Below, one piece after another: positions 12,781 through 34,725 of a DNA stretch of 64,000 nucleotides. Each line of letters begins with the position of its first letter. Within the stretch, counting starts at the first letter, position 1. The notes under the pieces were generated by a model. The model was not told the origin of the DNA. It saw only the letters and a list, made by a program, of their open reading frames with translations, and made no database searches. The translations under genes were made by a program, and so were the position numbers. Source of the stretch: Halobacteriovoraceae bacterium (GTDB lineage: Bacteria > Bdellovibrionota > Bacteriovoracia > Bacteriovoracales > Bacteriovoracaceae); the NCBI GenBank assembly GCA_963719505.1, contig CAVRCF010000002.1, positions 1-64,000 on the forward strand. Reading direction: 5' to 3'.

Positions 12781-13320
12781 TTGAACTACTTGTCATTAAT
12801 TTTTTTAATCTTATCAACGAAGGCGTATACTGCAACACTAAATAGTGCAGTTTCTTTGGCTGCGAATGGCTATTCAGTGTCGAGCGGTGGCGCAAGCTTG
12901 ACCGGGGTAGGGATGGTTAGTGGCACATTGAAAAAACCACTTACGGAAAACCACTATTATGAGATAGGTGGAGATGCTATACTAGCTAGTGAGTCATCTA
13001 CCTCTTTGCTTTATGGCTTAAACTTGGGTTATACATATTGCTTGACTTTATGCAGCGATAAATCTTTTCAAATCTTAAATGATAAAATAGAAAGCTCACC
13101 GAAGAGGTATCAGTCCATAAGCTTTCTATACGTAACGAGAAAAGTTCTCATTAATGAAAGTGACGCTAGTTACACAGGCCCAGGATTGAGGTTGAGGCAT
13201 ATGGAACTATTTATGTCAGATTATAAGCTGATTTTTATTTATGGGGTCGACTTCATAGGTAGTCTCAATAGAGATATAATTTTTCATCAGTTAGGTTTAG
13301 GAATGGAGTTTAGAATATGA
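12781..13320 (+). CDS. Putative small outer-membrane beta-barrel protein
   Basis: Signal peptide; alternating hydrophobic/aromatic strands (YYEIGGD, LYGLNLGYTY, FIYGVDF); ends in LGLGMEFRI beta-signal-like strand. Confidence 0.55.
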   Translation: MNYLSLIFLILSTKAYTATLNSAVSLAANGYSVSSGGASLTGVGMVSGTLKKPLTENHYYEIGGDAILASESSTSLLYGLNLGYTYCLTLCSDKSFQILNDKIESSPKRYQSISFLYVTRKVLINESDASYTGPGLRLRHMELFMSDYKLIFIYGVDFIGSLNRDIIFHQLGLGMEFRI

Positions 13321-13907
13321 AATTTATATTTGTGTTAAGTTTTAGCCTCGTTGCGAATGGCTCGATAACTATAAATTCAAATGAAAATGGTGTCAAAGTC
13401 TCAGAAATTATTGGCGGAGCAAGTACCTTTCGATCCAATGTCCCTTATACAATTGAGGGTGACTTTGGTAAGCCTCGAAGGTTCATCCTTGAGAAAAATG
13501 ATTTTCAGTCCAGAGATATTTTATTCGTTAATGAATCAGTAAAAAAGCATAATACAAAAATTGTATTAAACATGGATCAATTATCTTTATGGTCTAGTCA
13601 ATACCAATCAAATATCATCTCTGAAAAAGTAGAAAAATATGCAATCACATTTTTGAAGTTTCAGTATTATGTTTCCCAAAAACTCATCAATGAAGCTGAA
13701 GAGGAGTTGAATAAACTGAAAAAGATGATTAGCTCATCAAGCTCAATTATTACAATTGCTGATGGCAGTCTGGCTTACTTAAAGGGCGAAAGATCAAAAG
13801 CTCACAGTCTCTTTAATTACGTCGTTAAGGACAAAACAAATGATCCGTTCGTTCTTAAGATGGCAAATGATCTATTAAGGTCATTAAAGTTAAAGGATGC
13901 TAAATGA
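13317..13907 (+). CDS. Exported protein with PEGA-like N-terminal domain and TPR-like C-terminal helices
   Basis: SITINSNENGVKV..VPYTI..FILEKNDF (PEGA-like); GSLAYLKGERSKAHSLF (TPR-like); ATGA-coupled to both neighbours. Confidence 0.5.
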   Translation: MKFIFVLSFSLVANGSITINSNENGVKVSEIIGGASTFRSNVPYTIEGDFGKPRRFILEKNDFQSRDILFVNESVKKHNTKIVLNMDQLSLWSSQYQSNIISEKVEKYAITFLKFQYYVSQKLINEAEEELNKLKKMISSSSSIITIADGSLAYLKGERSKAHSLFNYVVKDKTNDPFVLKMANDLLRSLKLKDAK

Positions 13908-14626
13908 ATTACCTTTTTTTTATATTAGTAGCTGTGGGTTCTGTCTATTACCTTTTTGCTGGAACAGGTATTGACCCTCAATCTTATATTAACTTTCCTG
14001 GCTTTTTAATCGTATTAAGTGGAACATTGTGTGCATTTCTTTTATCGAATAGCATGAATATTATAATAGACACTTTTAGAGAAGAGTTCATTAATAAGAA
14101 GAGAATCTCTAAATTAGATTTTTATCAAGATTTAAGAGAATTTGTTGAAGGTTTTTATAGAGGAGAGCTAAAGCCTTCAAAATATCATCTCACTTCAAAT
14201 GTTATAAAGTATAGAGGGATTGGTATCGATACAGACTCTCAACTGGATCTTATTCAAACTGAGATACAATCGAAGTATGAAAAAGCTATTCTGGTGTGTG
14301 AGAGAATAAAAAATCTTGGTAAATATCCTCCAGCATTTGGCATGGTTGGTACGGTATTTAGTATGGTGGGTGTATTTGGCTCTTTGGGGGGGGACTCTGA
14401 CCCCAATAGTTTGGGAATACACGTTGCGACAGCGATGCTATCAACCTTGTACGGTATACTTTTAGCAAATATAATAATTTTGCCTTTTGCAGAGAAAATA
14501 AAAAATCGAGCCACTGAATTACTGTTTTTGGATAATCTTTTTCTGCAGACATGTGATCTTCTCTTTTCAGATAAATCTAAAGCTCATGTTTTAGAAAGGT
14601 TAAATTTGTATGAAAAGGACAATTAG
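13904..14626 (+). CDS. motA: MotA/PomA-family ion-channel stator subunit
   Basis: 4 TM segments; INFPGFLIVLSGT, GKYPPAFGMVGTV, VATAMLSTLYGILLANIIILPFAEKIK. Confidence 0.85.
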   Translation: MNYLFFILVAVGSVYYLFAGTGIDPQSYINFPGFLIVLSGTLCAFLLSNSMNIIIDTFREEFINKKRISKLDFYQDLREFVEGFYRGELKPSKYHLTSNVIKYRGIGIDTDSQLDLIQTEIQSKYEKAILVCERIKNLGKYPPAFGMVGTVFSMVGVFGSLGGDSDPNSLGIHVATAMLSTLYGILLANIIILPFAEKIKNRATELLFLDNLFLQTCDLLFSDKSKAHVLERLNLYEKDN

Positions 14627-15206
14627 AAATTTTAGAGTGAGGCAGAGCAGCGAAGATCGAGATGATTGGATATTAAGTTTTGTAGATTTGTTGTCTCTTC
14701 TTTTGATTTACTTTATTGTAAGTATGACTTTTACCCCCCCTGAGAAAACAGTTGAAGATATTACAAATAGAGAACTCATGAGTGGTGTTATGAGTTCAAT
14801 TGGTTCTGAATTAGATGCCGAAATGAAAATAAGAGGTGACAAAGTTGTCGTGAAATTCCCAAATAAAAACTTCTTTGACTCAGGGGAATATTTGCTAAAT
14901 AAAGAGGGTGTTTTGCATTTAAAAAAATTTTATCAATCGCTTAAAAACTATTCTGATAAAATAAAAATTAAAATTTATGGACTCACAGACCCTCAAAAAG
15001 TTTCAAAAAGAACAAAACGTTTAGTTACAGGTAATTGGGAGTTGAGAGCTTTAAGAGCTATTTCAGCTATGAACCTTCTTATAGATGAAGGATTTGATAA
15101 AGATTTTGTTATTATTTCTAGTCGTTCTTCAAAAGAATCAACAGGGGAAGTTAAGCCTAATTATAAATTTATGAGAAAAGTAGAAATCGAAATTGAGCAG
15201 AGGTAA
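14610..15206 (+). CDS. motB: MotB-family stator subunit (TM helix with conserved Asp + OmpA-like PG-binding domain)
   Basis: WILSFVDLLSLLLIYFI; FFDSGEY, IYGLTD, NWELRALRA, RKVEIEI. Confidence 0.85.
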   Translation: MKRTIRNFRVRQSSEDRDDWILSFVDLLSLLLIYFIVSMTFTPPEKTVEDITNRELMSGVMSSIGSELDAEMKIRGDKVVVKFPNKNFFDSGEYLLNKEGVLHLKKFYQSLKNYSDKIKIKIYGLTDPQKVSKRTKRLVTGNWELRALRAISAMNLLIDEGFDKDFVIISSRSSKESTGEVKPNYKFMRKVEIEIEQR

Positions 15207-15260: not shown

Positions 15261-15767
15261 TTAGTTATATTTGTTGTATAAGCGACAAGATTCAAGTTTG
15301 TAGGCTCTTTTATTTATCCAGCTTTCATTAATAACCTTCTCTGATATAAGGAGACCATCTTCTTGATCAAAGGAATCAAATCCATCTCGGTCAACATCGT
15401 CCATACTAATAAAAATTTCTCTTGTTTCATCGAAGACTAAGCTTAAGGAATTTCTATTCCTCATATGATTATAAAATCTATACTTATAGGTTAGTTTAGA
15501 TTCATTTAGCTGAGCTTCTATTTTTAGTTTTGCATCTGAGTGCCATACAGCAGGGCCAAAGTCAGGGAAAAAATATGTTTGCAGGTTATCTACAGATTTC
15601 TCAAACATTAATGTTCCATCTTTTTTAAAGCTGTTCATTCTTACTACCATAGTTGACTCATCCTCATTTTCAAGTGAATCAAACTCAATTCTGCATTCAA
15701 GAGTTAATGGGGTTGCAAAAATGTTCATGCTCGCAATAATTAGGATAATTGACGTAAATACTTTCAT
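15261..15767 (-). CDS. Secreted hypothetical protein
   Basis: SD GGAG; signal peptide ending IFA; two Cys. Confidence 0.7.
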   Translation of the reverse strand: MKVFTSIILIIASMNIFATPLTLECRIEFDSLENEDESTMVVRMNSFKKDGTLMFEKSVDNLQTYFFPDFGPAVWHSDAKLKIEAQLNESKLTYKYRFYNHMRNRNSLSLVFDETREIFISMDDVDRDGFDSFDQEDGLLISEKVINESWINKRAYKLESCRLYNKYN

Positions 15768-15991
15768 GTTATCTCCGGGTTAGTTATCTAGTAATACTAA
15801 AATATCTCGATTTCTAAAAATTATATATAAAATTGAACATATTACAGACTAAGCTTTATGAATTATAAAGCTATTTTTATTAAAAAATAGCTTATGTTGA
15901 ATGATTTTTGAGGACTTAGGTGGGGCAAAAACCTTATTAAATCAGTCTATTGGATTGACTAGGTCTCTTTATATCTAAAGTTATTTATAGC

Positions 15992-16018
15992 TAAAGTAAT
16001 TCTTCTTTTTAACGATAA
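15992..16018 (+). promoter_or_regulatory. Sigma28 (FliA)-like promoter
   Basis: TAAA-N15-AACGATAA versus consensus TAAA-N15-GCCGATAA. Confidence 0.65.
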
Positions 16019-16054
16019 GTTTAAAAACAGCTGCTAAATCAATGGAGGGATAGC

Positions 16055-17593
16055 TTGATTCGTTTAAATCTATACCTATTTTCTATCTTTATGGCCTTGG
16101 CGGCAATTTCTTCCTACGCAAACCCTATCGAAATCTCACAGGTTCAAGACTTTGAAAATGATCTTTCTCGATCTTTGACAAATTCGCTGATAAAACTTGG
16201 TGCTGAGATGGGAACTTTGACGAGGGTAAAATTCAGTGGGGTCGTTCTCAAAAAAGAAGAGTCAAATTTTTTGCCACTAGGACTTGGTAAAGTCTCACTT
16301 GGAGTATCGGAGAAATTTAAAATTCGCCGTATCGATATAAGAGTTTTTTCTAAAAAAGCTCTTTCCGAGGACATTCAGAGTAAAATTCGTAAATTTGTGA
16401 AGTCGGAAATTAATATTTCTGGAGCGCGCCTAAAAACAAGTTTTGAAGCGATCTCTCTAGCGGCTAAAGCTTTGCCTAGTGTTGTTGTGAAGACGCCTAA
16501 AGCTAGTGAACTTGAGAGTTTTCTAACGAAGTACGCAGTAGCTGCAGCGCTGATTTTTTCAGCACTGGTTCTGGGAATATTTTTTGTCATAGGTCTTCTT
16601 TTAGTGAGAAATAAAAAGAAAGAGGCAAGTACGTCTTATAGTCCTGAATCTCAAAACCATGACAAAATAAGCTCTCTTCCCCCTCAAATACCTAGAGGAC
16701 ACTATATTGATATTTTATCCAGAGATAATTTTTGGAATAAATTTTCGGAAAAATCCTTGTCTTTGGCGTTTAATGATTTGAGTGCAGATGATAAAAATAG
16801 CTCGGCACTCAATACCCTTATTGGTCAGTACTTGCCGGCAAATAAATACGAAGTGATACAGAATAAATTAAGGAGTATTAGTTCCAATGGGTTTGATTCT
16901 GAAGAAGAAGAGAAAGTTGCGGACCTTGCTAGATACTTAGTGCAAAAAGCTCATGAATACAATCGATTATCATTAAGCGCTCTCAGCTGGAGTATAGGTT
17001 ATTTGGGAGAAGAGGTGGTGCTTGAGATGCTTGAGCAATCAAAGTTTGATACGACATTTCTTATTTTGAGTTACTACCATGCTCCGCCGATGGTTAAGGA
17101 GAGGTTGCGAGAGATTTTACCGGAAGATATTCGTCACCAGGTTGTGAATTTTGATTTTTCTGATCTACACGGAGAGGTCGTAAAAACTCTTGAGGCAAGT
17201 ATGGTTAGATTTTTAGATAAAAAACTTGATGCTTCAGTGGATGTTAATTTTGAAGAGGCGTGTTTTGATTTGACCCGACCACAGAGCTTTGCAGAGGATG
17301 AGAGAAGTTATGTTGAGTTCGGAAATAAGTTTGATTCAGTTTTAGGTTATGTCGACTCTATAGAAAATCTTGGGATGAGTGCTAAGGATCTTTCTTTAGT
17401 TTTTTACGGTTACAGTGAAGATGTCCTTGAAAGAGTGCGAGGACAAGTCGGAAAACTGGAGCTTGAATGGTTTGATTCTTTTGTTGAAGAGCAAAGGAAG
17501 CTGAAGAGTCATTATAACGATAATAAATTGAGTGAGCTTCGAGAGCGAGTCCGTTTGAAGGCGGGAAGCTTCTCGCTTGGTAAAGTGGCATAA
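16055..17593 (+). CDS. Exported single-pass membrane protein with cytoplasmic FliG-M/FliG-C-like domains (copy 1)
   Basis: SD GGAGG + TTG; signal peptide; periplasmic domain; TM AVAAALIFSALVLGIFFVIGLLLV; EEVVLEMLEQSKFDTTFLILSY..ILPEDIRHQVV (FliG-M-like); SAKDLSLVFYGYSEDVLERVRGQV (FliG-C-like). Confidence 0.65.
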   Translation: MIRLNLYLFSIFMALAAISSYANPIEISQVQDFENDLSRSLTNSLIKLGAEMGTLTRVKFSGVVLKKEESNFLPLGLGKVSLGVSEKFKIRRIDIRVFSKKALSEDIQSKIRKFVKSEINISGARLKTSFEAISLAAKALPSVVVKTPKASELESFLTKYAVAAALIFSALVLGIFFVIGLLLVRNKKKEASTSYSPESQNHDKISSLPPQIPRGHYIDILSRDNFWNKFSEKSLSLAFNDLSADDKNSSALNTLIGQYLPANKYEVIQNKLRSISSNGFDSEEEEKVADLARYLVQKAHEYNRLSLSALSWSIGYLGEEVVLEMLEQSKFDTTFLILSYYHAPPMVKERLREILPEDIRHQVVNFDFSDLHGEVVKTLEASMVRFLDKKLDASVDVNFEEACFDLTRPQSFAEDERSYVEFGNKFDSVLGYVDSIENLGMSAKDLSLVFYGYSEDVLERVRGQVGKLELEWFDSFVEEQRKLKSHYNDNKLSELRERVRLKAGSFSLGKVA

Positions 17594-17625
17594 AAGCTTG
17601 GCGATATTTGAGAATCGTTTGATTA

Positions 17626-17648
17626 ATCTACTATAAGACATAGTAGAT
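17626..17648. promoter_or_regulatory. Perfect 9-bp inverted repeat between the FliG-like and adhesin genes (mRNA stem or operator); also at 31307-31329
   Basis: ATCTACTAT-AAGAC-ATAGTAGAT with no T tract. Confidence 0.4.
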
Positions 17649-17690
17649 GAGACAAGGTGTTAAAATATTTATGAGACAGAGGGGGAGAAA

Positions 17691-20600
17691 TTGAGTTCAT
17701 TTATATCTTTGATTTTAGTTTTCTTTTTAGGAATGTCTTGTATGAATAGCGAGGATGCGAAAGAGGTTTTCGGATCTAAAGAAGCGGTGGGAGACGGTGG
17801 AGAATCGAGCTCTCTTGGATTTTTGATCACGAGTATCTATCCTTCAAACGGAGGTTTGGGTGGAGGATATGTGGTTTATATAAACGGTTCAAAGTTTACG
17901 AGCGATACAACTTTTGCGTTGGGCGGAACACCTTGTCTGTCGACGCAGATCCTTTCTTCAACTTCAGCGACTTGCCTTGCGCCACCTAGTGGGGCTTCAG
18001 GTTTGGTAAGTGTTTCGGCGAGTAAGGTCGGGGATAGTTACTCCCAGGCAGGAGGTTTTAGATATGTGGGAGCGACAGTAATAACGAGTGTAAGTCCGGC
18101 GATAACACCTGGAACAATACCAACGAGGATAGTTTTAACGGGGACAAATTTTATAAGTGGAAGTTTGGTAAATATAAGTCATCCCAATCTTCCGAATTCG
18201 CCGTGTACATCAGTCAATGTGGTAAATTCCACGACACTGGAATGTTTTACACCAGTGCTTACACCTAACCAGACAGATACGATGAGCACATCAGGAGTGA
18301 TTCCAAGTATTGAAGTCGTGACGCCAGATGGAGGAACGTCTTCACTTTTGAACGCTTTAACTTTGACGCCAGCGCCTATTATTACGGGAATCAGTTTTGG
18401 AGGTTCGGGAGTGACAGCGCTTCCGGTGGATGGGGTTTTGAATAATGGGGTTTCAAACTTTACTTTAACCCTGACGGGGAAATATTTTGTCGCGGGCGTG
18501 AGTGTAAGGCTTGCTTCTTTAAATGTACCAAATTGTAGTTCTTTTAATTCTAATCAGATCAGGTGTACCACATTGCCTGCAATGAGTAGCGCTGGAGGAT
18601 TCAATTTTGTTATCACAAATCTTGATGGGCAAAGCTCTTCTTTTAATACAAATTTTGTTAATAAACCAATTTCAACGGGATTCTCGCCTACAAAAACAGT
18701 TTTTACCGGTGGAGATGTGACTATATCGGGATCGGGGCTAAGTGTTGTGTCCCCACCGACCATAAGCATTTTTAAAGACTCAGACAATAGTTATGTAGCT
18801 CCTTGTACTATTGTGAGCTCCTTGCCTGTTATTTGTCGGGCACCAGACTTGGGCGAAGCTATGGATGTATTCTTTAGAATCGTGAATGAATATGGTTACA
18901 GAGCTGATACAGGAGTTTATGATTTTAGTGGTAGTACAGCCCTTAAGTTAAGTGGTGATACTAACCTTGAAAGAGTTGCCATAGGTTCTACTTTTAATAA
19001 ATCATTTATTTTTGCTAATCCCTCTGGAACGGTTGATGCTGAAAATCTCGCCTTCGATTTTTCAGGTTTCTCTACACCAGCTTTTAGCTTTGTCTCTAAT
19101 GATTGTACATCGACTCTGAGTGCTGGAAACTTTTGTACTTTAACTTTGAGTTTTAGTCCTACGGCGCTTGATTTTTATGAGTCAGGAAATTTTACGGTCT
19201 CCTACGATAACGGAATAAGTAACGTTAGTACTACTTATTCACTTAAAGGTAGAGGGGTAAAATTAGAGCTTGGACCGCCAACTCTAAACTTTTCTGTGAT
19301 TCCTTTTGGAATGAATCACGCTGGGCGTGCACCAGGTTTTCTTCGAGCTATTGTCATTAACAATGACTCTAATGCCTCAGTTCAAATAGATTCAACAAAT
19401 TTATCTAACACTACTGACTTTAACTATTACGGTGGGAGTTATCCCGGCGTTTTTGCAACACCGTTTAGCCATCAGTGTCCAGCTTCAAATATTATTCCAG
19501 CGAACACTTATTGCGTTGTCGTGATTGAGTTTAAGCCTCAATCTACAGGAGCAAAAACAGCGAACTTTTCTTTGAATTATAACTCAGGGCACTCAACTAG
19601 GAATGTGGTACTTTCCGGTAGTGGTGGTGATCCATCAATTACAACTTGTAATCCTGCAGCGCTGCCTTACGGTGGGGGATCAGGTATAGATGCAGACCCT
19701 TGGCAAATTTGTAGTGAGGCCCAATTTTTAGCTGCGATATCAGAAACAAATGATCATGCGAATACCTCCGCTGGAGATGACGATTTTATTTTGATGGACG
19801 ATATTACTTTTAGTGCTGGAGTTAGTAATGATATAACGCTCTTTAATTCCGCTTTTAGCTTCGATGGAAATGGTTATAAACTAATTGATTACGCGTTGAT
19901 AGATCCAGGCCAGACAAATGTTTCTGTAATTGGTGGACCGAATCGTGGTGGAAGTAGTATTCGTAGAGTACAAGCTTTAAATATGCAACTGAGCGGACTT
20001 TCGGCTGCTCCACTTGGTACCAGTGGGTCTTATGATAGTTTTTTGCAGGGGCAAGTTCTGGCATCCGGTAGTGCAAGTGGAGCTGCAGTAAATTCGGCTG
20101 GATATCTGGGTTTAATGAATCTGCAATTTATTGGTGATATAACTTCGACTAGTTCTTTTGCCGTAGGAGCATTAGACTATAATCAGTCTGTGACAATGAA
20201 TGAAGGATTAATAGTTGCAAATATGACTGGCCAAACCGGAGTCAGTGGCGCTGTTAGAGAGGGACGTTCTGCTGTTGCAGATTATTATGTGTATGCAGAA
20301 TTAAATAGTCCTTCTGGCTCAGCTAATGGAATTGGTGGAGTAGGTACAATTAATTCCCATTTTTATGGAAAGATAGATGCGGCTGGTGAGCTTTCAGGTA
20401 TAAGTAGAGCTCAGGGCTTTTCTAATTGCTCTGCCCGAGGGGTATTTAGTAGTGTTAACGGTAGAGTCGGAGGACTTTCTAGTTTAATAATACCTGGTCA
20501 TTATATTCATAACTCTTACTCTACTGCAAAATTAAAATCAGCAAGTGTAGAAATTGGAGGACTAGTTGGACGTTTCGATGGTCTTGAACTTAAGAACTCC

Positions 20601-20996
20601 TTTTTTGCAGGCCAGATCGATGCAAGTTCTGGGGGAGGGGGTGTTGCAGGTATTAGTTATCAAAATTCTATCGTAAGTAAGGTTTATGTAGCGCCTGTTC
20701 ATTCTGAAAGCGTTTTTATTAAAAATATCCATGCAACCTCCACGCCTATTTCAAGGGGAACAAACCCTTTAACCTTTAATGACGGAGTTTTTTACTTGAG
20801 AGATAGCTTGTCTTCTCCGTATGTAGAAGCTGGTGTTGAAGAATTCTCACAAACACAAATGATAAATCAAACGAATTTTGATACTATTTACGGTTCTTGG
20901 GACTTCAATCCAGCCGGAGGTCGCGATTGGAAGTTTTCCACATCAGGGTATCCTTACCCCATTTTAGACTGGATGGAAGATGATTGGATGCCTTAG
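17691..20996 (+). CDS. Large surface lipoprotein/adhesin: IPT/TIG repeats, Ig-like (ASH/choice-of-anchor-D-like) domains, GLUG-type beta-solenoid (variant 1)
   Basis: Lipobox-like LGMSC; ITSIYPSNG..GG..V.INGSKF..PC..SSTSATC..P repeats; CTSTLSAGNFCTLTLSFSPT; GSGIDADPWQICSEAQF; IGGLVG; WDF..W..YPILDW ending. Confidence 0.8.
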   Translation: MSSFISLILVFFLGMSCMNSEDAKEVFGSKEAVGDGGESSSLGFLITSIYPSNGGLGGGYVVYINGSKFTSDTTFALGGTPCLSTQILSSTSATCLAPPSGASGLVSVSASKVGDSYSQAGGFRYVGATVITSVSPAITPGTIPTRIVLTGTNFISGSLVNISHPNLPNSPCTSVNVVNSTTLECFTPVLTPNQTDTMSTSGVIPSIEVVTPDGGTSSLLNALTLTPAPIITGISFGGSGVTALPVDGVLNNGVSNFTLTLTGKYFVAGVSVRLASLNVPNCSSFNSNQIRCTTLPAMSSAGGFNFVITNLDGQSSSFNTNFVNKPISTGFSPTKTVFTGGDVTISGSGLSVVSPPTISIFKDSDNSYVAPCTIVSSLPVICRAPDLGEAMDVFFRIVNEYGYRADTGVYDFSGSTALKLSGDTNLERVAIGSTFNKSFIFANPSGTVDAENLAFDFSGFSTPAFSFVSNDCTSTLSAGNFCTLTLSFSPTALDFYESGNFTVSYDNGISNVSTTYSLKGRGVKLELGPPTLNFSVIPFGMNHAGRAPGFLRAIVINNDSNASVQIDSTNLSNTTDFNYYGGSYPGVFATPFSHQCPASNIIPANTYCVVVIEFKPQSTGAKTANFSLNYNSGHSTRNVVLSGSGGDPSITTCNPAALPYGGGSGIDADPWQICSEAQFLAAISETNDHANTSAGDDDFILMDDITFSAGVSNDITLFNSAFSFDGNGYKLIDYALIDPGQTNVSVIGGPNRGGSSIRRVQALNMQLSGLSAAPLGTSGSYDSFLQGQVLASGSASGAAVNSAGYLGLMNLQFIGDITSTSSFAVGALDYNQSVTMNEGLIVANMTGQTGVSGAVREGRSAVADYYVYAELNSPSGSANGIGGVGTINSHFYGKIDAAGELSGISRAQGFSNCSARGVFSSVNGRVGGLSSLIIPGHYIHNSYSTAKLKSASVEIGGLVGRFDGLELKNSFFAGQIDASSGGGGVAGISYQNSIVSKVYVAPVHSESVFIKNIHATSTPISRGTNPLTFNDGVFYLRDSLSSPYVEAGVEEFSQTQMINQTNFDTIYGSWDFNPAGGRDWKFSTSGYPYPILDWMEDDWMP

Positions 20997-21807: not shown

Positions 21808-23448
21808 TTAGGGAAATGAAAGCCAAGGCTTGTATTGCTTATACTCAGGTGTCTGAGGCTTTGCTTTAGGGTCTATCCACAACATACTTTCATTATTCTT
21901 ACTTTTATTCTTTATACCTACATCTTTATTGGTTTTATTTTCAGGATGACTCGATACTTTTTTAATGGGTCTATACGTTTTAATATTTAGTGGATTCTGA
22001 CAGTCTGAATAAGGGTCCTCTAGGGATCCTGTACAGAGTACATTTCTCGTATAACCGGAGCTAAATTTGACCTTCTTAACTATGCTCATCTGTGAATTAT
22101 CGTTAGACATTTTTGCATATTTTTCGATATAGGAATAGTTTTTAAGAAAAATCACTTTTTCATACTCACCAGTTCCACCATCTACTGTAGTAAAATTTAA
22201 CTTTCTAATTTTGTTAAGATCACTTGAACTTGGCATTAGACCCATGTAACTAAAGATCTTAATATCAATAAGGTCTCCGCCGATATTTTTATTGAATTGG
22301 TCTCTGCTAACTCCTTCTGAGTCAAAGCGGTCCATACTAATACTTGGAAAGTATCCTAGAAGTGTTTTTCCAAAACTTGTGATCGCTCCGTCTACTTGTA
22401 GAGGAGGTTTCTTAAAGTTTTTAAATATGTTCTGTAAGTCATATGGGGATAACTTTCCATTAATTAAAGCATATTTTATAGCTGGCATTAAAGTTAAAAT
22501 ATCCTGAAAACTTGATACGGAATTGTGAAGATTTTTGACTTTTATGCTTAATTCATTCTTAAAACGATTGTAGTCATTACCATAACTAACTCCATTATTG
22601 TCGAATTGTAAAAGTGTACACATTATATCTCTTGTTCTTTTTATTTTATTACACTTTATGTTGATATCGTTACCAACAATAGCTACTTTATCATTTTTGC
22701 TGGAGGCTGGTAATGAGTTTCTAAAGTCAATCATACAAGAAACAACTTTTTCAGAATTGTTGATTGCATCAAAGTCTGAAAATGCATTAGTCAAACTTTG
22801 TTTTCTAAAAAAGTTTTTATATCCATTTACGATTGCTGAGCCCGAAGCTCCAACTCCGTTTGCTCCGATATTAGTTGATGAAATTAGATTGTTTTTATCG
22901 TCGCACACTAGTGAATCAGGGTGACTAAGGAGAATTGAAGCACCTGGACTCATTCCCGATTTTGGAGCTGAGGCGCCAAGGTTTCCATCCATAGAGCATA
23001 CACCGGTTCTGCACGCAGAGTAGTGGTTCATTTTGGCACTAAAGACATTTTTTTTACAACCTTTGTCGCAAGATGCTCGAATTAAATCCAAACTATTTAA
23101 GACATTAGATGACCCATCGTGATCTCCTTCGGTTCTCCAGTACGTTTGACCTTCATTGTCGACAGAACCGTGACTTGAGAGCACGAGCATGTCACAAACC
23201 TTTCCACTTCTTTCTGCATTTTCACATATTGTCTTTACAATATTATCAGATGACTGCCTGTCACTTACAAAAGACTTCTCGTCCACGGAGGAGTAAAGCT
23301 CAACCACATCATAAAGATCCTTTCTACTTTTAAAATAATTAATTTCGTCATTGGAGTTAATAGTGATTCCACAGACAACGGGTTTTTTGGCAATGGCCAG
23401 ACTACTCAGAATTATGAGCCCGGTAATTATAAAAAAATTCAACTTCAT
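21808..23448 (-). CDS. Secreted Cys-rich protein with possible caspase/CHAT-like (clan CD) His-Cys dyad
   Basis: SD GAGGA; signal peptide; CDMLVLSSHGS and NHYSACRTG. Confidence 0.5.
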   Translation of the reverse strand: MKLNFFIITGLIILSSLAIAKKPVVCGITINSNDEINYFKSRKDLYDVVELYSSVDEKSFVSDRQSSDNIVKTICENAERSGKVCDMLVLSSHGSVDNEGQTYWRTEGDHDGSSNVLNSLDLIRASCDKGCKKNVFSAKMNHYSACRTGVCSMDGNLGASAPKSGMSPGASILLSHPDSLVCDDKNNLISSTNIGANGVGASGSAIVNGYKNFFRKQSLTNAFSDFDAINNSEKVVSCMIDFRNSLPASSKNDKVAIVGNDINIKCNKIKRTRDIMCTLLQFDNNGVSYGNDYNRFKNELSIKVKNLHNSVSSFQDILTLMPAIKYALINGKLSPYDLQNIFKNFKKPPLQVDGAITSFGKTLLGYFPSISMDRFDSEGVSRDQFNKNIGGDLIDIKIFSYMGLMPSSSDLNKIRKLNFTTVDGGTGEYEKVIFLKNYSYIEKYAKMSNDNSQMSIVKKVKFSSGYTRNVLCTGSLEDPYSDCQNPLNIKTYRPIKKVSSHPENKTNKDVGIKNKSKNNESMLWIDPKAKPQTPEYKQYKPWLSFP

Positions 23449-23682: not shown

Positions 23683-25656
23683 ATGAAAAAATTTGTTTGC
23701 TTATTACTGCTGTACATAATTTCAGTAACTTGTGCTTGGGCCAATAATTTTGAATCAAATACGCGAAAGGAAATAAACTCAGTTCGTTATCAGCTTTCGA
23801 AGATAAAGAACAATATTTATATTAGTAATAATAAGTTTGAAGAGAGTTTACTAATTGAGCAAAAATATAAAATGTCTCTTCGAGATTTTGATAGAGATAT
23901 GTATCGAAATTTGAATGTTTTGAAAGCCTTGGCCAAAAGATCTCATTCCAGTGTGAAAAGAAAGCTAAACTTCAAAGACAAAGTTCTTTACCTGTCTTCA
24001 TTGAGCTACCTGAAATGTCTCGCCAATCTAAATAACAATTTATCAATAAAAAATTGTCATGAGCCACATAGAAAACATGATTTACTTATGTCCTTGATGC
24101 CTAAGATCAGTAAACTGAAAAAGAAACTAGAGGTTAGTAAGGACGATATTGAAAAAGCGATCTATTCAGTTCAAAATGACAGAAGACAGGTGATCAGTTT
24201 ACTTGTTGAACTTAGAAAGAAAGAGAATCAACTTAAAATCCAATACACCAGCTTATTAGATAAGGATAGAGAGATATCATTAAGGGCTGAAATTGATGAG
24301 CACAAAGCTAGATATGCGAAATTTTATAATTGCAATGAGGATGGGTATACTCTCGATTTAGAAAATGAAACCATTCATAACACTCTGCCAACCAGAGGTC
24401 CTTTTTATAAGCTTCAGCGTGATAGCCAAGGAGCTTTGGGAACCTGTTACGCCAATACAGCTAAAAACTTAATCGTGGGAATCACAAAAGGCGACTCGAT
24501 TGCTTCATTTTTAGACCTAGCTGCAATTTACAAGGAGAATACAGCAAGTCTAGAGTCTCTTGATGGGGGATTTACTTGTAAAGTTTTAGATCTGATTAAA
24601 GAAAAAGGTTACTGCCCTCAGTCTTATTCGCCCTTAGAGAAAAACAGCTATTCTGTGAATAAGACATTTTATATGGATACTGATATTATTGATTTTTTAT
24701 ATAGATACCATGATCAATCAAGTGAACTCGAATTGGTATATCGAAATTTAGATTCTTTTTGGAATGAGTTTGATGATAGATTAATTAAAACGGGAACATT
24801 TCTTGTCGATAAAGTGGGTTCTCCTTTAGACTCAAACCTTTATTCTAACCTTTATAAATGGAATTACCTCACTTCTTTATCTGAGGGAGAATCAAAGGTT
24901 TCAGAGCCGAGCTTTATCGCTGAGTTAGATGCTGCACAAATTAAGTTTTATGAAAAACTACTAGATTTATCAGATAGTGAAGATCACTTGGATCCTGAAA
25001 GAGTTAAAAACATTTTTCATACTGTTTTGAAAAATACTATAAATAAGTACAGCTTAAATGCGAAATTTAAAGAAGGGTCACTTCTCAGCTTAAAACTGGA
25101 GTACTTTTTTAAAAAATTAACTAAGCGATCTTTTCTTCATGAGTATACCACTGTTCTGAGGGGGGTGCTTTTGGGAAGAGGTCAAATTGAGCAACTTTAC
25201 AAAGACGGTATTTACGATGAACACTTTTTAAAAGTTTTTGCCAGCGAGATGCGGTTTAGAAGGCTAGTTGCTCAAAATGGGCTATCAGTATCTGGGAGAG
25301 ACATCAAAGGGATGAGTAAATTACAGTTTGTTATGAGTGTTGCTGCTCCAAAGTGTTTGGATCAAAGAAATAGGAAAAACATCGAAACCCCTTTTTCGTG
25401 TCAATCATTAGATACCAAAAAGAATAAAGGTGTGATTCATGACAGAATTATAATGAGTTTGATAAAGGGGCTTCCTGTTGGAAATACTTTTCCAACAGGG
25501 GCTTTAACTTCACATATCAATACTATTGTCGGAAGCCGATTTTACCAAGGTAAGTGTGAATATAAAATTCGAGAGTCACAAAATGGTACTTCAAGTTGGC
25601 ACAGTAGAGATACTATCATTCAAAAAATGTCGGATATCACTATTGTTGAGCGTTAA
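23683..25656 (+). CDS. Secreted papain-like (C1-type) cysteine peptidase with N-terminal coiled coil
   Basis: Signal peptide; RDSQGALGTCYANTA (Gln, Cys); LDGGFTC; SHINTIVG (His); YKIRESQ where NSWG is usual. Confidence 0.65.
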   Translation: MKKFVCLLLLYIISVTCAWANNFESNTRKEINSVRYQLSKIKNNIYISNNKFEESLLIEQKYKMSLRDFDRDMYRNLNVLKALAKRSHSSVKRKLNFKDKVLYLSSLSYLKCLANLNNNLSIKNCHEPHRKHDLLMSLMPKISKLKKKLEVSKDDIEKAIYSVQNDRRQVISLLVELRKKENQLKIQYTSLLDKDREISLRAEIDEHKARYAKFYNCNEDGYTLDLENETIHNTLPTRGPFYKLQRDSQGALGTCYANTAKNLIVGITKGDSIASFLDLAAIYKENTASLESLDGGFTCKVLDLIKEKGYCPQSYSPLEKNSYSVNKTFYMDTDIIDFLYRYHDQSSELELVYRNLDSFWNEFDDRLIKTGTFLVDKVGSPLDSNLYSNLYKWNYLTSLSEGESKVSEPSFIAELDAAQIKFYEKLLDLSDSEDHLDPERVKNIFHTVLKNTINKYSLNAKFKEGSLLSLKLEYFFKKLTKRSFLHEYTTVLRGVLLGRGQIEQLYKDGIYDEHFLKVFASEMRFRRLVAQNGLSVSGRDIKGMSKLQFVMSVAAPKCLDQRNRKNIETPFSCQSLDTKKNKGVIHDRIIMSLIKGLPVGNTFPTGALTSHINTIVGSRFYQGKCEYKIRESQNGTSSWHSRDTIIQKMSDITIVER

Positions 25657-29602: not shown

Positions 29603-29672
29603 TATAAATTGACATGCTTTCGACCTACTATTTGCAAAGTTAAATATAAAAACACATGAAATTTTGTATAGC

Positions 29673-29735: not shown

Positions 29736-31274
29736 TTGATTCGTTTAAATTTATACCTATTTTCTATCTTTATGGCCTTGGCGGCAATTTCTTCCTACGC
29801 AAACCCTATCGAAATCTCACAGGTCCAAGACCTTGAAAATGATCTTTCTCGATCTTTGACAAATTCGCTGATAAAACTTGGTGCTGAGACGGGAACTTTG
29901 ACGAGGGTAAAATTCAGTGGGGTCGTTCTCAAAAAAGAAGAGTCAAATTTTTTGCCACTAGGACTTGGTAAAGTCTCACTTGGAGTATCGGAGAAATTTA
30001 AAATTCGCCGTATCGATATAAGAGTTTTTTCTAAAAAAGCTCTTTCCGAGGACATTCAGAGTAAAATTCGTAAATTTGTGAAGTCGGAAATTAATATTTC
30101 TGGAGCGCGCCTAAAAACAAGTTTTGAAGCGATCTCTCTAGCGGCTAAAGCTTTGCCTAGTGTTGTTGTGAAGACGCCTAAAGCTAGTGAACTTGAGAGT
30201 TTTCTAACGAAGTACGCAGTAGCTGCAGCGCTGATTTTTTCAGCACTGGTTCTGGGAATATTTTTTGTCATAGGTCTTCTTTTAATGAGAAATAAAAAGA
30301 AAGAGGCAAGTACGTCTTATAGTCCTGAATCTCAAAACCATGACAAAATAAGCTCTCTTCCCCCTCAAATACCTAGTGGACACTATATTGATATTTTATC
30401 CAGAGATAATTTTTGGAATAAATTTTCGGAAAAATCCTTGTCTTTGGCGTTTAATGATTTGAGTGCAGATGATAAAAATAGCTCGGCACTCAATACCCTT
30501 ATTGGTCAGTACTTGCCGGCAAATAAATACGAAGTGATACAGAATAAATTAAGGAGTATTAGTTCCAATGGGTTTGATTCTGAAGAAGAAGAGAAAGTTG
30601 CGGACCTTGCTAGATACTTAGTGCAAAAAGCTCATGAATACAATCGATTATCTTTAAGCGCTCTCAGCTGGAGTATAGGTTATTTGGGAGAAGAGGTAGT
30701 GCTTGAGATGCTTGAGCAATCAAAGTTTGATACGACATTTCTTATTTTGAGTTACTACCATGCCCCGCCGATGGTTAAGGAGAGGTTGCGAGAGATTTTA
30801 CCGGAAGATATTCGTCACCAGGTTGTGAATTTTGATTTTTCTGATCTACACGGAGAGGTCGTAAAAACTCTTGAGGCAAGTATGGTTAGATTTTTAGATA
30901 AAAAACTTGATGCTTCAGTGGATGTTAATTTTGAAGAGGCGTGTTTTGATTTGACCCGACCACAGAGCTTTGCAGAGGATGAGAGAAGTTATGTTGAGTT
31001 CGGAAATAAGTTTGATTCAGTTTTAGGTTATGTCGACTCTATAGAAAATCTTGGCATGAGTGCTAAGGACCTTTCTTTAGTTTTTTACGGTTACAGTGAA
31101 GATGTCCTTGAAAGAGTACGAGGACAAGTCGGAAAACTGGAGCTTGAATGGTTTGATTCTTTTGTTGAAGAGCAAAGAAAGTTGAAGAGTCACTATAACG
31201 ACAATAGATTGAGTGAGCTTCGTGAGAGAGTCCGTTTGAAGGCGGGAAGCTTCTCGCTTGGTAAAGTGGCATAA
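29736..31274 (+). CDS. Exported single-pass membrane protein with FliG-like cytoplasmic domains (copy 2)
   Basis: 512 aa; differs from copy 1 at 5 residues (F/L, M/T, V/M, R/S, K/R). Confidence 0.65.
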   Translation: MIRLNLYLFSIFMALAAISSYANPIEISQVQDLENDLSRSLTNSLIKLGAETGTLTRVKFSGVVLKKEESNFLPLGLGKVSLGVSEKFKIRRIDIRVFSKKALSEDIQSKIRKFVKSEINISGARLKTSFEAISLAAKALPSVVVKTPKASELESFLTKYAVAAALIFSALVLGIFFVIGLLLMRNKKKEASTSYSPESQNHDKISSLPPQIPSGHYIDILSRDNFWNKFSEKSLSLAFNDLSADDKNSSALNTLIGQYLPANKYEVIQNKLRSISSNGFDSEEEEKVADLARYLVQKAHEYNRLSLSALSWSIGYLGEEVVLEMLEQSKFDTTFLILSYYHAPPMVKERLREILPEDIRHQVVNFDFSDLHGEVVKTLEASMVRFLDKKLDASVDVNFEEACFDLTRPQSFAEDERSYVEFGNKFDSVLGYVDSIENLGMSAKDLSLVFYGYSEDVLERVRGQVGKLELEWFDSFVEEQRKLKSHYNDNRLSELRERVRLKAGSFSLGKVA

Positions 31275-31371: not shown

Positions 31372-34300
31372 TTGAGTTCATTTATATCTTTGATTTTAGT
31401 TTTCTTTTTAGGAATGTCTTGTATGAATAGCGAGGATGCGAAAGAGGTTTTCGGATCTAAAGAAGCGGTGGGAGACGGTGGAGAATCGAGCTCTCTTGGA
31501 TTTTTGATCACGAGTATCTATCCTTCAAACGGAGGTTTGGGTGGAGGATATGTGGTTTATATAAACGGTTCAAAGTTTACGAGCGATACAACTTTTGCGT
31601 TGGGCGGAACACCTTGTCTGTCGACGCAGATCCTTTCTTCAACTTCCGCGACTTGCCTTGCGCCACCTAGTGGGTCTTCAGGTTTGGTAAGTGTTTCGGC
31701 GAGTAAGGTCGGGGATAGTTACTCCCAGGCAGGAGGTTTTAGATATGTGGGAGCGACAGTAATAACGAGTGTAAGTCCGGCGATAACACCTGGAACAATA
31801 CCAACGAGGATAGTTTTAACGGGGACAAATTTTATAAGTGGAAGTTTGGTAAATATAAGTCATCCCAATCTTCCGAATTCTCCTTGTACATCAGTCAATG
31901 TGGTAAATTCCACGACACTGGAATGTTTTACACCGGTGCTAACACCTAATCAGACAGATACGATGAGTACATCAGGAGTGATCCCAAGTATTGAAGTAAT
32001 CACGCCAGATGGAGGAACGTCTTCACTTTTGAACGCTTTAACTTTGACGCCAGCGCCTATTATTACGGGAATCAGTTTTGGAGGTTCGGGAGTGACAGCG
32101 CTTCCGGTGGATGGGGTTTTGAATAATGGGGTTTCAAACTTTACTTTAACCCTAGTCGGAAAACATTTAAAAGCAGGACTGTCGGTGAGGCTTGCAGGTA
32201 ATACTGCGGGATCTTGTACATTTTTTAATGCAACTCAAGTCCGGTGTACTTCTTTGCCATCAGTTACAACAGCGGGTGGATTTAATTTTAATATTACTAA
32301 CAATGACGGGCAGAGTTCAAGTTTTAATACGAGCTTTGTCGATAAGCCTGTTGTCTCAGATTTCTCTCCAGCGAGAACCGCTTTTACGGGGGGAGATGTA
32401 ACGATCAATGGTGTTGGGTTGAGTATTCTTAGTGCACCCTCAGTTGTCATTCATAGGCAGAGTGATTCTAGTCTACTTGCAAATTGTACAGTCTCGAGTT
32501 CATCACCACTAGTCTGTACTGCGCCTGATTTGGGTTCTGAAGTGGATGTTTTTTTTAGAATAACAACTGAGTATGGTTATCGTGCCGATAGTGGAATATA
32601 TTTTTTTAGTGGAAGTACAGAACTTGGAATAAATGGTGATTTCAATTTAGAAAGAGTTACACTCGGCTCAACATTAGAAAAGAGTTTTATTCTCACAAAT
32701 CCTTCTTTAGGTGTTGATATAACTAGTCTTAACTTGGACTTTAGCGCTTTAGGCGGTGCTTATTCATTTGTTTCTTCAACTTGTACCGCAAATCTTAATG
32801 CGGGGCAGGTATGCAATTTCGTTGTTAGATTTATGCCAACAGCTCTTGAGTACTATGAATCCGGCAATATTAACATTAGTTATTTTGACGGCTTAACTAA
32901 TGTAGCTTCTAGCTACAAGCTTAACGGTTGGGGAATTGAGCTAGAAGTTGGACCACCGGTTATAGATTTTAGCTCTGTCTCTGTTGGTCCGAACCTTCAG
33001 GGTATTGCCCCAAAATTTCTTAAAGGTGTAGTTATTAATAATCGTTCAAATGCTTCGGTTCAGGTAGATATTTCAAGACCATCTGATTTCTCAAATTCAA
33101 CAGATTTTCATTACATGGGTGGTAGTGGCTTTCCAGGGATTTGGCCTACAACACCCGCTGAGGCTTGTCCAGTTTCAGGAGAAATACCACCTAATACTTA
33201 CTGTGTAGCAGCTGTCGAATTTGAACCTCAAAGTTTAGGTGGAAGTACCTCAACATTTTCTCTTAGCTATAATTCAATATACACAACTAAGCCTATTGAA
33301 CTAGTTGGTAATGGAAATGGACTCACGACCACGGTCTGTGATCCTTCCGGAGTACCTTACGGTGCAGGAGATGGAACAAGCATTAATCCTTGGCAACTGT
33401 GTTCAGAAGCCCACATGGTGAGAATGCGAACAAGAATTAATGATACTGATACTGTGGAGGCTAACGATTTTTTTCTGCAAATGAGTGATATTACTTTTAC
33501 ATCTTCTTTTCCTGAGTCAATCGAGATGACTGGTGGGTTATTTGATGGAGGAGGTTACAAACTGATTGATTTTGAAATTAGTAATACAGGTTTAGGAGCG
33601 GCTTCTTTATTGTCAGATAATATTGACGGATACACTAGTCCTTATAGTTGTAATACAACGAGAATGCAGTTGTTAAATCTAAAAATTACAGCCGGTATTG
33701 TAGCTGGGCTTTCATCTTGTAGGAGTTCTAGTGTTGGTAATTCAACACTTCAAGGAGCACTAGTTGGTTCTAGTCGTGTCGGTGGTGTTATTCATCAGGT
33801 TGTCGGCGCAGCTCCGAGCAATACTCAGTATATTGGTACAATAAAAAGCTCCTCGTCCGGTGGTGGTATATATTATGGTTTCAACAATTCTACTGATACT
33901 ACTCAAAATAACTTATTTATTGGATCGGCTGATGTTGTTGGCGGCTTTGGAGGAATAACGATTGGAGGAAGAATTAGTACTATAAATAGCTATGTCTACG
34001 CTGATATCGTTGCAGCTTTAGCGTCAGGGATTAGTGCCAATCAATATGGTGTCCAGGATTCACATTTCTTTGGATCGATAAATGTATCTGGAGATTTTGA
34101 AGGTGTTGGTGCTGCTAGGTACGGCAGCATAGGCGTGGTTCGTTCAAGTTCCAGAGGGACAGTGTCTGGTGGTGGAGGTTTATACTCGGGAGGGGTCAGT
34201 GGCAACTTATCTAGTGCAGTAGGTGTCGAGCAGTCATATTCAACTTTGAAAATAGATTGTCCTTTGGGTTGTGGAGGTTTATCTGGAAGGCACTTAAGTA

Positions 34301-34725
34301 CCTCAGTCGGTCTTCAAGATAGCTTTTTTGCCGGGAAGATGAGCTCGGTTATGAGTGGTATTTCTAGCGACAATTCAAGCCTTACACTCGCTCCAGTTGA
34401 ACGAATATATGTGGCAAGTTCAGATATGTTAAGTATTTTAAGTGACTCTGATGATGATGACGCAAATATGATTACTAGAGATCCAGAGGGTTTTGACTTT
34501 AAGGATGTCTTTTACTTGAGAGATTCATCTGCGGGTAATTATGTTTCAACTGGTGTCACTGAGCTCAACAATGCAGAGATGATGAATATTACTAGGTTTA
34601 GAGATATAGGTGGATGGGATTTTAAAGATACTGCCGAGGATGGAGACCCTGCAGTTTGGAAAATGGGAACAGCTGGCTATAAGTACCCCATTCTCGACTG
34701 GATGGAGGACGACTGGATGCCTTAA
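31372..34725 (+). CDS. Large IPT/TIG-Ig-GLUG surface lipoprotein/adhesin (variant 2)
   Basis: First ~260 aa nearly identical to 17691-20996, remainder homologous but diverged; same terminal YPILDWMEDDWMP. Confidence 0.8.
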   Translation: MSSFISLILVFFLGMSCMNSEDAKEVFGSKEAVGDGGESSSLGFLITSIYPSNGGLGGGYVVYINGSKFTSDTTFALGGTPCLSTQILSSTSATCLAPPSGSSGLVSVSASKVGDSYSQAGGFRYVGATVITSVSPAITPGTIPTRIVLTGTNFISGSLVNISHPNLPNSPCTSVNVVNSTTLECFTPVLTPNQTDTMSTSGVIPSIEVITPDGGTSSLLNALTLTPAPIITGISFGGSGVTALPVDGVLNNGVSNFTLTLVGKHLKAGLSVRLAGNTAGSCTFFNATQVRCTSLPSVTTAGGFNFNITNNDGQSSSFNTSFVDKPVVSDFSPARTAFTGGDVTINGVGLSILSAPSVVIHRQSDSSLLANCTVSSSSPLVCTAPDLGSEVDVFFRITTEYGYRADSGIYFFSGSTELGINGDFNLERVTLGSTLEKSFILTNPSLGVDITSLNLDFSALGGAYSFVSSTCTANLNAGQVCNFVVRFMPTALEYYESGNINISYFDGLTNVASSYKLNGWGIELEVGPPVIDFSSVSVGPNLQGIAPKFLKGVVINNRSNASVQVDISRPSDFSNSTDFHYMGGSGFPGIWPTTPAEACPVSGEIPPNTYCVAAVEFEPQSLGGSTSTFSLSYNSIYTTKPIELVGNGNGLTTTVCDPSGVPYGAGDGTSINPWQLCSEAHMVRMRTRINDTDTVEANDFFLQMSDITFTSSFPESIEMTGGLFDGGGYKLIDFEISNTGLGAASLLSDNIDGYTSPYSCNTTRMQLLNLKITAGIVAGLSSCRSSSVGNSTLQGALVGSSRVGGVIHQVVGAAPSNTQYIGTIKSSSSGGGIYYGFNNSTDTTQNNLFIGSADVVGGFGGITIGGRISTINSYVYADIVAALASGISANQYGVQDSHFFGSINVSGDFEGVGAARYGSIGVVRSSSRGTVSGGGGLYSGGVSGNLSSAVGVEQSYSTLKIDCPLGCGGLSGRHLSTSVGLQDSFFAGKMSSVMSGISSDNSSLTLAPVERIYVASSDMLSILSDSDDDDANMITRDPEGFDFKDVFYLRDSSAGNYVSTGVTELNNAEMMNITRFRDIGGWDFKDTAEDGDPAVWKMGTAGYKYPILDWMEDDWMP

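Follow-up and report, generated by a model that had tools for sequence, protein, structure and literature searches.

This work concerns a gene at positions 16055-17593 of a 64,000-nucleotide stretch of DNA from a Halobacteriovoraceae bacterium (assembly GCA_963719505.1, contig CAVRCF010000002.1, positions 1 to 64,000 of the forward strand). We call the whole stretch the window. The gene encodes a single-pass membrane protein whose cytoplasmic part is related to FliG of the flagellar rotor. Canonical FliG is a soluble cytoplasmic protein held by the C-terminus of FliF. Four genes upstream, for two stator-like subunits, a PEGA/TPR-type protein and a small barrel, form together with the target gene what we call the module. 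The features of the module and of the protein are as follows (TM, transmembrane; ORF, open reading frame; RBM, ring-building motif; E, expectation value).

12781..13320, forward strand: small outer-membrane beta-barrel-like protein, 179 amino acids (profile of 28 positional homologues, E 4.2e-12)
13317..13907, forward strand: secreted periplasmic protein of PEGA/TPR type, 196 amino acids (profile of 7 positional homologues, E 6e-15)
13904..14626, forward strand: MotA-like stator A subunit, 240 amino acids (PF01618, 4.1e-16)
14610..15206, forward strand: MotB-like stator B subunit, 198 amino acids, with a TM Asp and an OmpA-like domain (OmpA 8.7e-8; MotB_plug 0.0064, below cut-off)
15261..15767, reverse strand: ORF of 168 amino acids with a signal peptide and no family, between motB and the target gene
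16055..17593, forward strand: target gene, 512 amino acids; signal peptide, RBM3-like periplasmic domain, TM helix, FliG-like cytoplasmic part
16124..16498, forward strand: periplasmic alpha-beta-beta-alpha-beta domain, residues 24-148 (~125 residues), with an insert at residues 55-88 that holds the near-invariant L73-P74 (from model, alignments and FliF match)
16526..16609, forward strand: TM helix, about residues 158-185 (from hydropathy and the model helix)
16688..17569, forward strand: cytoplasmic FliG-like part, residues 212-505, FliG-M/C-like from about residue 318

All five module genes are present within the window. Their order is rearranged, and the opposite-strand ORF, which was not found at that place in the other loci read, stands before the target gene. 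No Rfam family reached its gathering score within the window, so no riboswitch precedes the module. A scan for promoters and terminators gave fewer sites than in shuffled sequences and was not used.

The target gene is a listed ORF with the start codon TTG, and GGAGGG lies 6-7 nt 5' of it. The hydropathy of the protein (Kyte-Doolittle, 19-residue windows, threshold 1.6) exceeds the threshold at residues 1-19 and 155-188 only. The first of these segments is signal-like and ends in ...SSYA/NP, as in a Sec signal peptide. The second is the TM helix. By the positive-inside rule, the RNKKKE directly after it should place the C-terminal ~325 residues in the cytoplasm.

We modelled the full-length protein with AlphaFold2 from a 32-sequence alignment (mean predicted local distance difference test, pLDDT, 75.4). 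The periplasmic part shows the alpha-beta-beta-alpha-beta order (helix 25-40, strands 47-54 and 90-99, helix 105-118, strand 125-132), with the insert at residues 55-88 disordered or of low confidence. A long helix (150-185) and a disordered linker (188-211) follow. The remaining part, at 215-505, is all-helical, with pLDDT mostly 82-97. Modelled alone, the cytoplasmic domain was worse than within the full length (mean pLDDT 73.6, middle part 50-80). An earlier note, made from the sequence, had claimed a signal peptide, a periplasmic alpha/beta domain of ~130 residues and one TM helix. This layout is borne out by hydropathy and by the model.

Relationship of the protein to FliG and probable link to FliF

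The protein family (X) was widened by iterated profile searches. Type 1 consists of the target protein and nine others (alignment A9), type 2 is the majority of the family, and type 3 occurs in Bdellovibrio-like complete genomes (alignment A7). Types 1 and 2 are mixed in two alignments, A3 with 32 full-length rows and A5 with 28 rows of the cytoplasmic part. A6 covers the periplasmic domain, and A4 holds canonical FliG from this bacterial family.

Intermediates and the fold establish that the cytoplasmic part and FliG are homologous. Type-3 proteins exceed the Pfam cut-offs of FliG_M (PF14841; 35.0 and 36.7 bits), FliG_C (PF01706; 28.6 and 41.1) and FliG_N (PF14842; 25.0 and 32.7). Members in three other genomes likewise pass the FliG_C cut-off (G330, 51 bits; G523, 31 bits; G509, 25.2 bits). 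Profile comparison with hhalign joins type 1 to type 3 over 496 columns, from signal peptide to C-terminus (A9 with A7: 98.7%, E 3.8e-16), and A3 joins A7 at 98.4% (E 5.3e-15). Type 3 aligns in turn with canonical FliG (A7 with A4: 97.2%, E 3.5e-11). This last alignment spans residues 11-324 of the 344 of FliG, so the whole of FliG, including its N domain, has a counterpart.

We also searched 177,635 PDB sequences. The four best matches are T. maritima FliG both for A3 (4.7e-6 to 9.7e-5; next 0.054) and for A5 (1.3e-7 to 7.5e-5), and they span FliG-M and FliG-C. The resemblance to these two domains that the earlier note had pointed out recurs in the HMMER and hhalign alignments, in the same segments and register.

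The fold gives the same answer. A Foldseek search with the cytoplasmic model has FliG in each of its first twelve places (E 5e-3 to 0.11; next 1.2); the full-length model returned nothing at E<=0.001. VIA-align against 48,161 representative chains has FliG at ranks 1-6, with Z 7.7-6.3, values that in absolute terms are middling for helical proteins. Among these chains are 8umd_B (Z 7.7), 3soh_B (Z 7.2, root-mean-square deviation (rmsd) 2.2, 71 residues) and 1qc7_B (Z 6.8, rmsd 3.9, 80 residues). FliG or the related MgtE N-domain fills ten of the first twelve rows. The full-length model aligns with the FliG-C chain of the MotAB-FliG complex 8ucs at Z 7.7 over 78 residues. In the ESM Atlas, residues 300-512 alone gave FliG_C for all of the ten best named clusters; the best scored 0.88, below the 0.9 line, and counts as a lead only. 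Within the own genome (11,817 six-frame ORFs), the M/C profile run with filters off has canonical FliG as its first non-self match (E 0.01). Profile, fold and language-model searches all point to FliG for residues ~300-500. The earlier note had named the lack of a FliG- or MgtE-like match there as what would refute its reading, and this refutation did not occur.

The EHPQ motif of FliG-M binds FliM. It is present in the consensus of the own FliG. In the target protein, hhalign sets ...EQSKFDTT... opposite ...INEHPQTI..., with QSKFD facing NEHPQ. The loss of EHPQ, claimed earlier together with an unrecognisable MFXF, is thus confirmed. Of MFXF, one Phe is kept in 23 of 28 rows. A motif D/E-D/E-K-x-K/R opens the helix that aligns with the torque helix and is kept in 22-26 of 28 rows. 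Its conserved Lys stands opposite the Arg of FliG ...SKRAAALL..., and the target protein has GKLEL there.

The periplasmic domain points, more weakly, to FliF. Chains of FliF RBM3 align with the target model at Z 7.1-7.2 over 95-98 residues (rmsd 3.6-3.8; model 16-136 on FliF 228-438), and EscJ at Z 6.5. When the periplasmic profile is run on the same 11,817 ORFs, its first non-self match is FliF, encoded directly upstream of fliG (E 5e-4, weak). The match consists of two colinear pieces (profile 5-38 on FliF 245-278, and 92-124 on FliF 401-434). These are both halves of the split RBM3, which flank the long insert of FliF. Between the matching pieces, at the position of the beta-collar, the family has a short insert with a near-invariant Leu-Pro (~35 residues, compared with ~120 in the own FliF). 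Outside the family, the best matches of the protein's two halves in the own genome are thus the adjacent genes fliF and fliG, and the halves follow the order of these genes. RBM1, RBM2 and a second TM helix of the FliF type are absent, with ~125 periplasmic residues in all after a signal-peptide-like N-terminus. We regard the descent of this domain from RBM3 as likely. The family looks like a natural fusion, in which the last RBM of FliF and its second TM helix are followed by the whole of FliG. The earlier note had suggested that the periplasmic domain could build a ring. Its fold agrees with this, and the sequence link to FliF is weaker. A complex prediction with four copies of the domain (A6) scored 0.02 against a mark of 0.42; made with no controls, it speaks neither for nor against a ring.

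The Leu-Pro pair itself (residues 73-74, about 16271-16276) is the best conserved spot of the family, its Pro being invariant in 28 rows.

Several results weigh against these relationships. The target protein alone matches no Pfam or NCBIfam family, and no FliG family at E<=1. Direct hhalign comparison with canonical FliG is not significant (A9: E 0.038, 1.4%; A3: E 0.11, 0.5%), with the register unchanged. A type-1-only profile finds no FliG among the PDB sequences (best 0.33, unrelated), so the PDB matches of A3 and A5 are carried by their type-2 rows. When 32 members were scanned singly, three matched FliG_C (best 0.0023) and two MgtE_N, none above cut-off. The own FliG was not found by HMMER with default filters. 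Beyond one Lys/Arg, the charge pattern of the FliG torque helix, including the later acidic pair, is not kept. For the periplasmic part, uS3-like, OsmC and CzrB domains score up to Z 8.4, as high as FliF RBM3 or higher. Structure alone cannot decide the identity of RBM3, because unrelated domains of the same topology reach this value. The periplasmic profile finds no FliF among the PDB sequences (best E 0.34, unrelated), and hhalign from A6 and A7 to the same spot of FliF (...ALGIN..RGD.LVIKNMEF...) gives E 0.011 and 0.093 over 31-34 columns. The target protein is among the most diverged members of the family.

The stator, the family and its gene neighbourhood

The window MotA has nine PDB matches at E<=0.01. 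All of them are flagellar MotA or PomA (1.6e-15 to 5.8e-7), and two conserved prolines are aligned. Likewise, the PDB matches of the window MotB are MotB and PomB only, with the Asp of ...SFVDLL... aligned to that of MotB ...YADIL.... For MotB_plug, the window MotB reaches 16.5 bits versus a cut-off of 24, and the type-2 paralogue passes with 40.5 bits. The NCBIfam equivalog cut-offs for MotA, PomA and MotB are far from reached by the window proteins. In the terms of the consulted part of PMC12505986, the module stator is by its sequence of the flagellar kind and not of the Exb/Tol kind. Readings of it as Zorya, ExbBD or TolQR were dropped because no such chain is among the PDB matches at E<=0.01.

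The own genome holds ten genes of the MotA/ExbB family, among which one pair apart from the module has a strong MotB_plug match (C5:1149544-1150218). Its canonical fliF-fliG lie at C3:23201-25957. The own flagellar fliF, fliG and motAB are elsewhere in the genome than the module.

Single-sequence searches reach few relatives of the target protein. A word-indexed search of 5.8 billion proteins returned its own cluster only, whether run with the single sequence or with profile A1. An exhaustive phmmer search of 1.84 billion representatives gave five proteins at E<=0.001, the target included (1.8e-19 to 3e-5). In three genomes of the same genus the single sequence found no match. Profiles reach further. 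Among 238 genomes of the order, the type-1 profile A1 detects the family in 10 and A2 in 51. Profile A3 detects it in 87 of the 401 genomes sampled from the phylum (Bdellovibrionota) and in 57 of 204 genera.

A weak match in another genus (G033) has the same protein layout and shows the gene set in a tight operon. It encodes a PEGA/TPR protein of 193 amino acids, a MotA-like and a MotB-like protein, an X protein of 551 amino acids whose gene start overlaps the end of motB, and a barrel-like protein of 204 amino acids. The own genome also carries a type-2 operon (C2:305582-309887), with PEGA/TPR, MotA, MotB, an X protein of 568 amino acids and a barrel in this order. Next after it lies a PKD/NHL lipoprotein of 1214 amino acids. 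With the barrel and PEGA/TPR profiles, each window protein comes second in the genome to the type-2 operon's own protein. The homologues of the PEGA/TPR protein show weak PEGA/TPR matches in Pfam. Pairwise BLASTP of the window barrel and PEGA/TPR protein to their G033 counterparts was not significant (E 0.068; 2.1).

We read the neighbourhood in 34 loci, namely the type-1, type-2 and G424 loci with a readable upstream side (L010, L023-L028, L037-L058 minus L046, which is at a contig end, L059, L088, L106, L095 and both window copies). A motA-motB pair lies directly beside the X gene in 31 of them. MotA and MotB were recognised by eye in most loci, from length and N-terminal sequence, and were confirmed with Pfam in the window, L059 and L106. 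In the other three, L026, L095 and the window's second copy of the target gene, no motAB adjoins.

29736..31274, forward strand: second copy of the target gene, 507 of 512 residues identical, no motAB adjoining

The window MotA is 33% identical to the type-1 MotA of G033 (9e-36) and 29% to the own type-2 MotA (3e-22). The own type-1 and type-2 X proteins show no BLASTP similarity (E 1.3). As the MotA proteins are still alignable and the X proteins are not, the operon was duplicated long ago, with X evolving much faster than the stator.

Giant lipoproteins with Ig-type domains adjoin the module twice in the window, and in L059, L088, L106 and L095. They are not beside it in L010, L024 and L025. 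They are possible cargo or partners, that is, candidates for what the module acts on.

The cluster around the type-3 gene is larger, and motAB lies four genes from that gene. In the type-3 clusters L087 (G532) and L089 (G375), the extra genes between motB and the FliG-like gene encode a second barrel (on the other strand), a PEGA/TPR lipoprotein of 301-317 amino acids, a barrel, and a single-TM protein of 324-327 amino acids that belongs to no family.

Family proteins nearly always end in Ala, often as Ala-Ala or Ala-Ser, and the last residue is nearly invariant in A5. In the target gene the last codon is 17588-17590. The consensus of the own canonical FliG ends differently. The conserved C-terminal Ala could be a protease recognition tag.

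Besides canonical FliG, five related genomes (L064-L073) and the loci L002:1426-1848 and L003:1498-1923 (reverse strand) have stand-alone FliG_C-only proteins of ~140-180 amino acids, two or three per genome. The one in L002 scores 57.9 bits. In L002, L065 and L067 the gene adjoins another of ~330 codons, whose product starts like an NAD-dependent epimerase.

Relation to the flagellum and possible ways of working

FliM was found in 347 of the 401 sampled genomes. Two of the FliM-less carriers of the family, the incomplete genomes G509 (84%) and G523 (75%), do have FliG and FlhA. G330, which has no FliM or FlhA match, was dropped as a flagellum-less genome because it has FliF and rod genes. G424 is a different case. 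This genome is 97% complete and gave no match for FliM, FliG_C, FlhA, rod proteins or FliF. Nevertheless it carries a whole operon, with genes for a 1591-residue fn3/TIG lipoprotein, a PEGA/TPR protein, MotA, MotB (with plug and OmpA), a positional homologue of X of 554 amino acids and a barrel. A second set in G424 consists of PEGA, X and barrel. G266, a flagellum-less relative that is 99% complete, has no family protein and no MotB_plug match. G424 is a single case, and it fits what an independent machine would predict.

On balance, the target protein is probably the rotor-like partner of its own stator, in a module that works apart from the flagellum; we say this with reserve. MotB would anchor the stator to the peptidoglycan, and ion flow would turn the MotA pentamer. 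MotA could then push the FliG-like C-terminal domain in the way that it pushes FliG. On the periplasmic side, the RBM-like domains may oligomerise into a small rotor, or at least into a driven element. With its periplasmic face, this assembly might act on the PEGA/TPR protein and the barrel, which would carry the effect to the outer membrane, and perhaps also on the giant Ig-domain lipoproteins encoded nearby. No chemotactic switch would be expected, because EHPQ is lost and the module has no FliM/FliN-like gene. We put forward tentatively, as possible and still doubtful, the more specific proposal of a free-standing ion-driven rotary motor. There, an RBM3-TM-FliG ring would be turned by its own MotA5B2 and would act through the PEGA/TPR protein and the barrel on giant lipoproteins, with no export gate, rod or switch.

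Some observations speak against a module of this kind. Reading both lists, 83 of the 87 carriers also have FliM, so most carriers are flagellated. Neither X-like protein of G424 has a Pfam FliG match, and the X of its operon resembles the family weakly (E 0.012; hhalign 0.0029). In the window, the target gene lies 849 bp from motB, with the opposite-strand ORF between, and its second copy has no stator genes beside it.

The module might instead be a flagellar accessory, an alternative stator set with its scaffold. The FliG-like protein would then dock, store or position stators at the pole, or join the membrane-supramembrane (MS) ring beside FliF. The flagellar type of the stator subunits and the flagellar genes of nearly all carriers agree with this. 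Partners of TPR type and in the outer membrane are also known for the stators of other high-torque motors, in the sources consulted. G375, a complete Bdellovibrio-like genome, has MotB_plug matches at 129, 1086, 2913 and 3173 kb, the one at 2913 kb in the type-3 cluster. In the Bdellovibrio literature, as covered by the consulted part of PMC11323537, three motAB pairs are treated as flagellar, and by position the 2913-kb pair may be one of them. The same part of that paper counts a single motAB pair in Halobacteriovorax marinus, so additional pairs of this sort are not taken as flagellar everywhere. The cytoplasmic C-ring has no place for a protein that carries its own TM helix and periplasmic domain, the EHPQ motif is missing, and the whole operon exists in G424, where five flagellar families gave no match. 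We consider an accessory role unlikely.

A rotor is not the only thing that such a stator could drive. As a monomer or small oligomer, the protein could pass the push of MotA to its periplasmic domain, for TonB/TolA-like force or lateral transport, or its FliG-like domain could sense stator activity. The short insert at the beta-collar position and the missing RBM1 and RBM2 would suit a protein that does not rotate, and the alpha-beta-beta-alpha-beta fold is common outside ring builders. A signalling role would agree with Bdellovibrio, where mutations in stator genes alter the life style and the level of cyclic di-GMP (PMC11323537, in the part consulted). Yet the two halves resemble exactly two ring-forming rotor proteins in their natural order, and we think a driven, non-rotating element improbable. 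It is very improbable that the type-1 copies of the window are decaying paralogues of the own type-2 operon, which no longer work with a stator. The lack of BLASTP similarity to the own type-2 protein, the ORF inserted between motB and the target gene and the empty single-sequence search in the genus could be signs of decay. Against this, the two copies of the target gene are open frames that differ by 14 synonymous and 5 non-synonymous changes, which means that purifying selection acts on the frame. In other genera (G033, G194) there are type-1 operons in which motB and X overlap, and the window stator keeps the conserved prolines of MotA and the Asp of MotB.

The proposed rotor and stator follow the flagellar FliF/FliG/MotA5B2 in the order of their parts, RBM3 and TM2 coming before FliG N, M and C. 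They share with the flagellar core the homologous FliG-like fold. The stator likewise pairs MotA/PomA with MotB/PomB types and has the plug-like segment, the Asp and the OmpA-like domain. Unlike the flagellar core, the target is one polypeptide, in which a cleavable-looking signal peptide replaces TM1 and RBM1 and RBM2 are missing. It also differs from flagellar FliG in being anchored in the membrane, in the loss of EHPQ and in the charge pattern. The module is without genes for FliM/FliN, export gate, rod, hook and filament, and has the PEGA/TPR protein and the small barrel.

Fusions of FliF and FliG have been described before. Chlamydiaceae have a natural one of ~330 amino acids, with RBM2 and one RBM-like domain, no SpoIIIAG-like domain (RBM3) and a tail of FliG-M only (Bergeron 2016, PeerJ, PMC4768692, in the part consulted). 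This part discusses the fusion with the injectisome and names no MotAB partner. Compared by description only, the common layout is a signal sequence, RBM-type domains, a TM helix and a FliG-like tail, outside any flagellum. The target differs from what is described there in its 512 amino acids, its RBM3-like domain, its counterpart of the whole FliG and the MotAB beside its gene. Engineered FliF-FliG fusions of Salmonella and Vibrio form rings and work, with rotation supported in Salmonella (consulted parts of PMC4768692, PMC11481574 and bioRxiv 2023.02.06.527414). As presented in these parts, they are man-made, contain full-length FliF and act inside a complete flagellum. ExbBD, TolQR, AglRQS, GldLM and ZorAB are likewise ion-driven stators outside the flagellum, often acting across the envelope (PMC12505986, in the part consulted). 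According to the same part, these 5:2 motors give their output through the B-type subunit or a periplasmic partner, with condensed cytoplasmic A domains and B subunits mostly without a plug. In contrast, the module stator matches only flagellar PDB chains, and a FliG-like partner is present.

Our literature search found the Chlamydiaceae and engineered fusions only, and no paper on a natural RBM3-TM-FliG protein that comes with a MotAB pair, a PEGA/TPR protein and a barrel of its own. The parts are those of the known flagellar torque generator; the fusion, its partners and its probable independence of the flagellum are, as far as this search shows, new to print. To our knowledge, FliG and MotAB are known as a pair inside the flagellum only. 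If the module does work independently, the flagellar torque generator was reused, or once existed, as a machine of its own, and this bears on the old question of how motor and type III export apparatus were first combined. A free-standing motor could move adhesins for gliding or prey contact. It could be a stripped-down descendant of the flagellar motor, or a picture of the rotor-stator core without type III secretion. For the predatory Bdellovibrionota, it would mean an unstudied envelope machine in about a fifth of the sampled genomes, often in two or three diverged copies each. Cultured carriers with genetics exist in the phylum.

The duplicated segment and neighbouring genes

The second copy of the target gene is part of a longer duplication, detected with blastn, which reaches into the next lipoprotein gene.

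15986..18472: duplicated segment, 2487 bp, 98.6% identical to 29667-32153
17691..20996, forward strand: lipoprotein of 1101 amino acids with IPT/TIG and Ig-like domains (Pfam TIG 1.5e-18)
31372..34725, forward strand: paralogous lipoprotein of 1117 amino acids, its first ~260 residues nearly identical to those of the 17691-20996 product and the remainder diverged

The segment covers the target gene and the first ~780 bp (~260 codons) of the lipoprotein gene. The remaining ~850 codons are diverged, and similarity returns only in the final 41 bp, at 88%. Overall, the two lipoproteins are 56% identical. The segment looks like the product of gene conversion, or like a cassette whose head is constant and whose body varies.

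The neighbouring genes at 21808-23448, 23683-25656 and 26235-28313 encode secreted proteins with no family match. The gene at 28346-29602 (forward strand), directly upstream of the second copy, encodes a protein of 418 amino acids with a signal peptide. This protein matches the ADP-ribosyltransferase exoenzyme family PF03496 above cut-off (3.6e-15, 56 bits) and may serve the predatory bacterium as a secreted effector.

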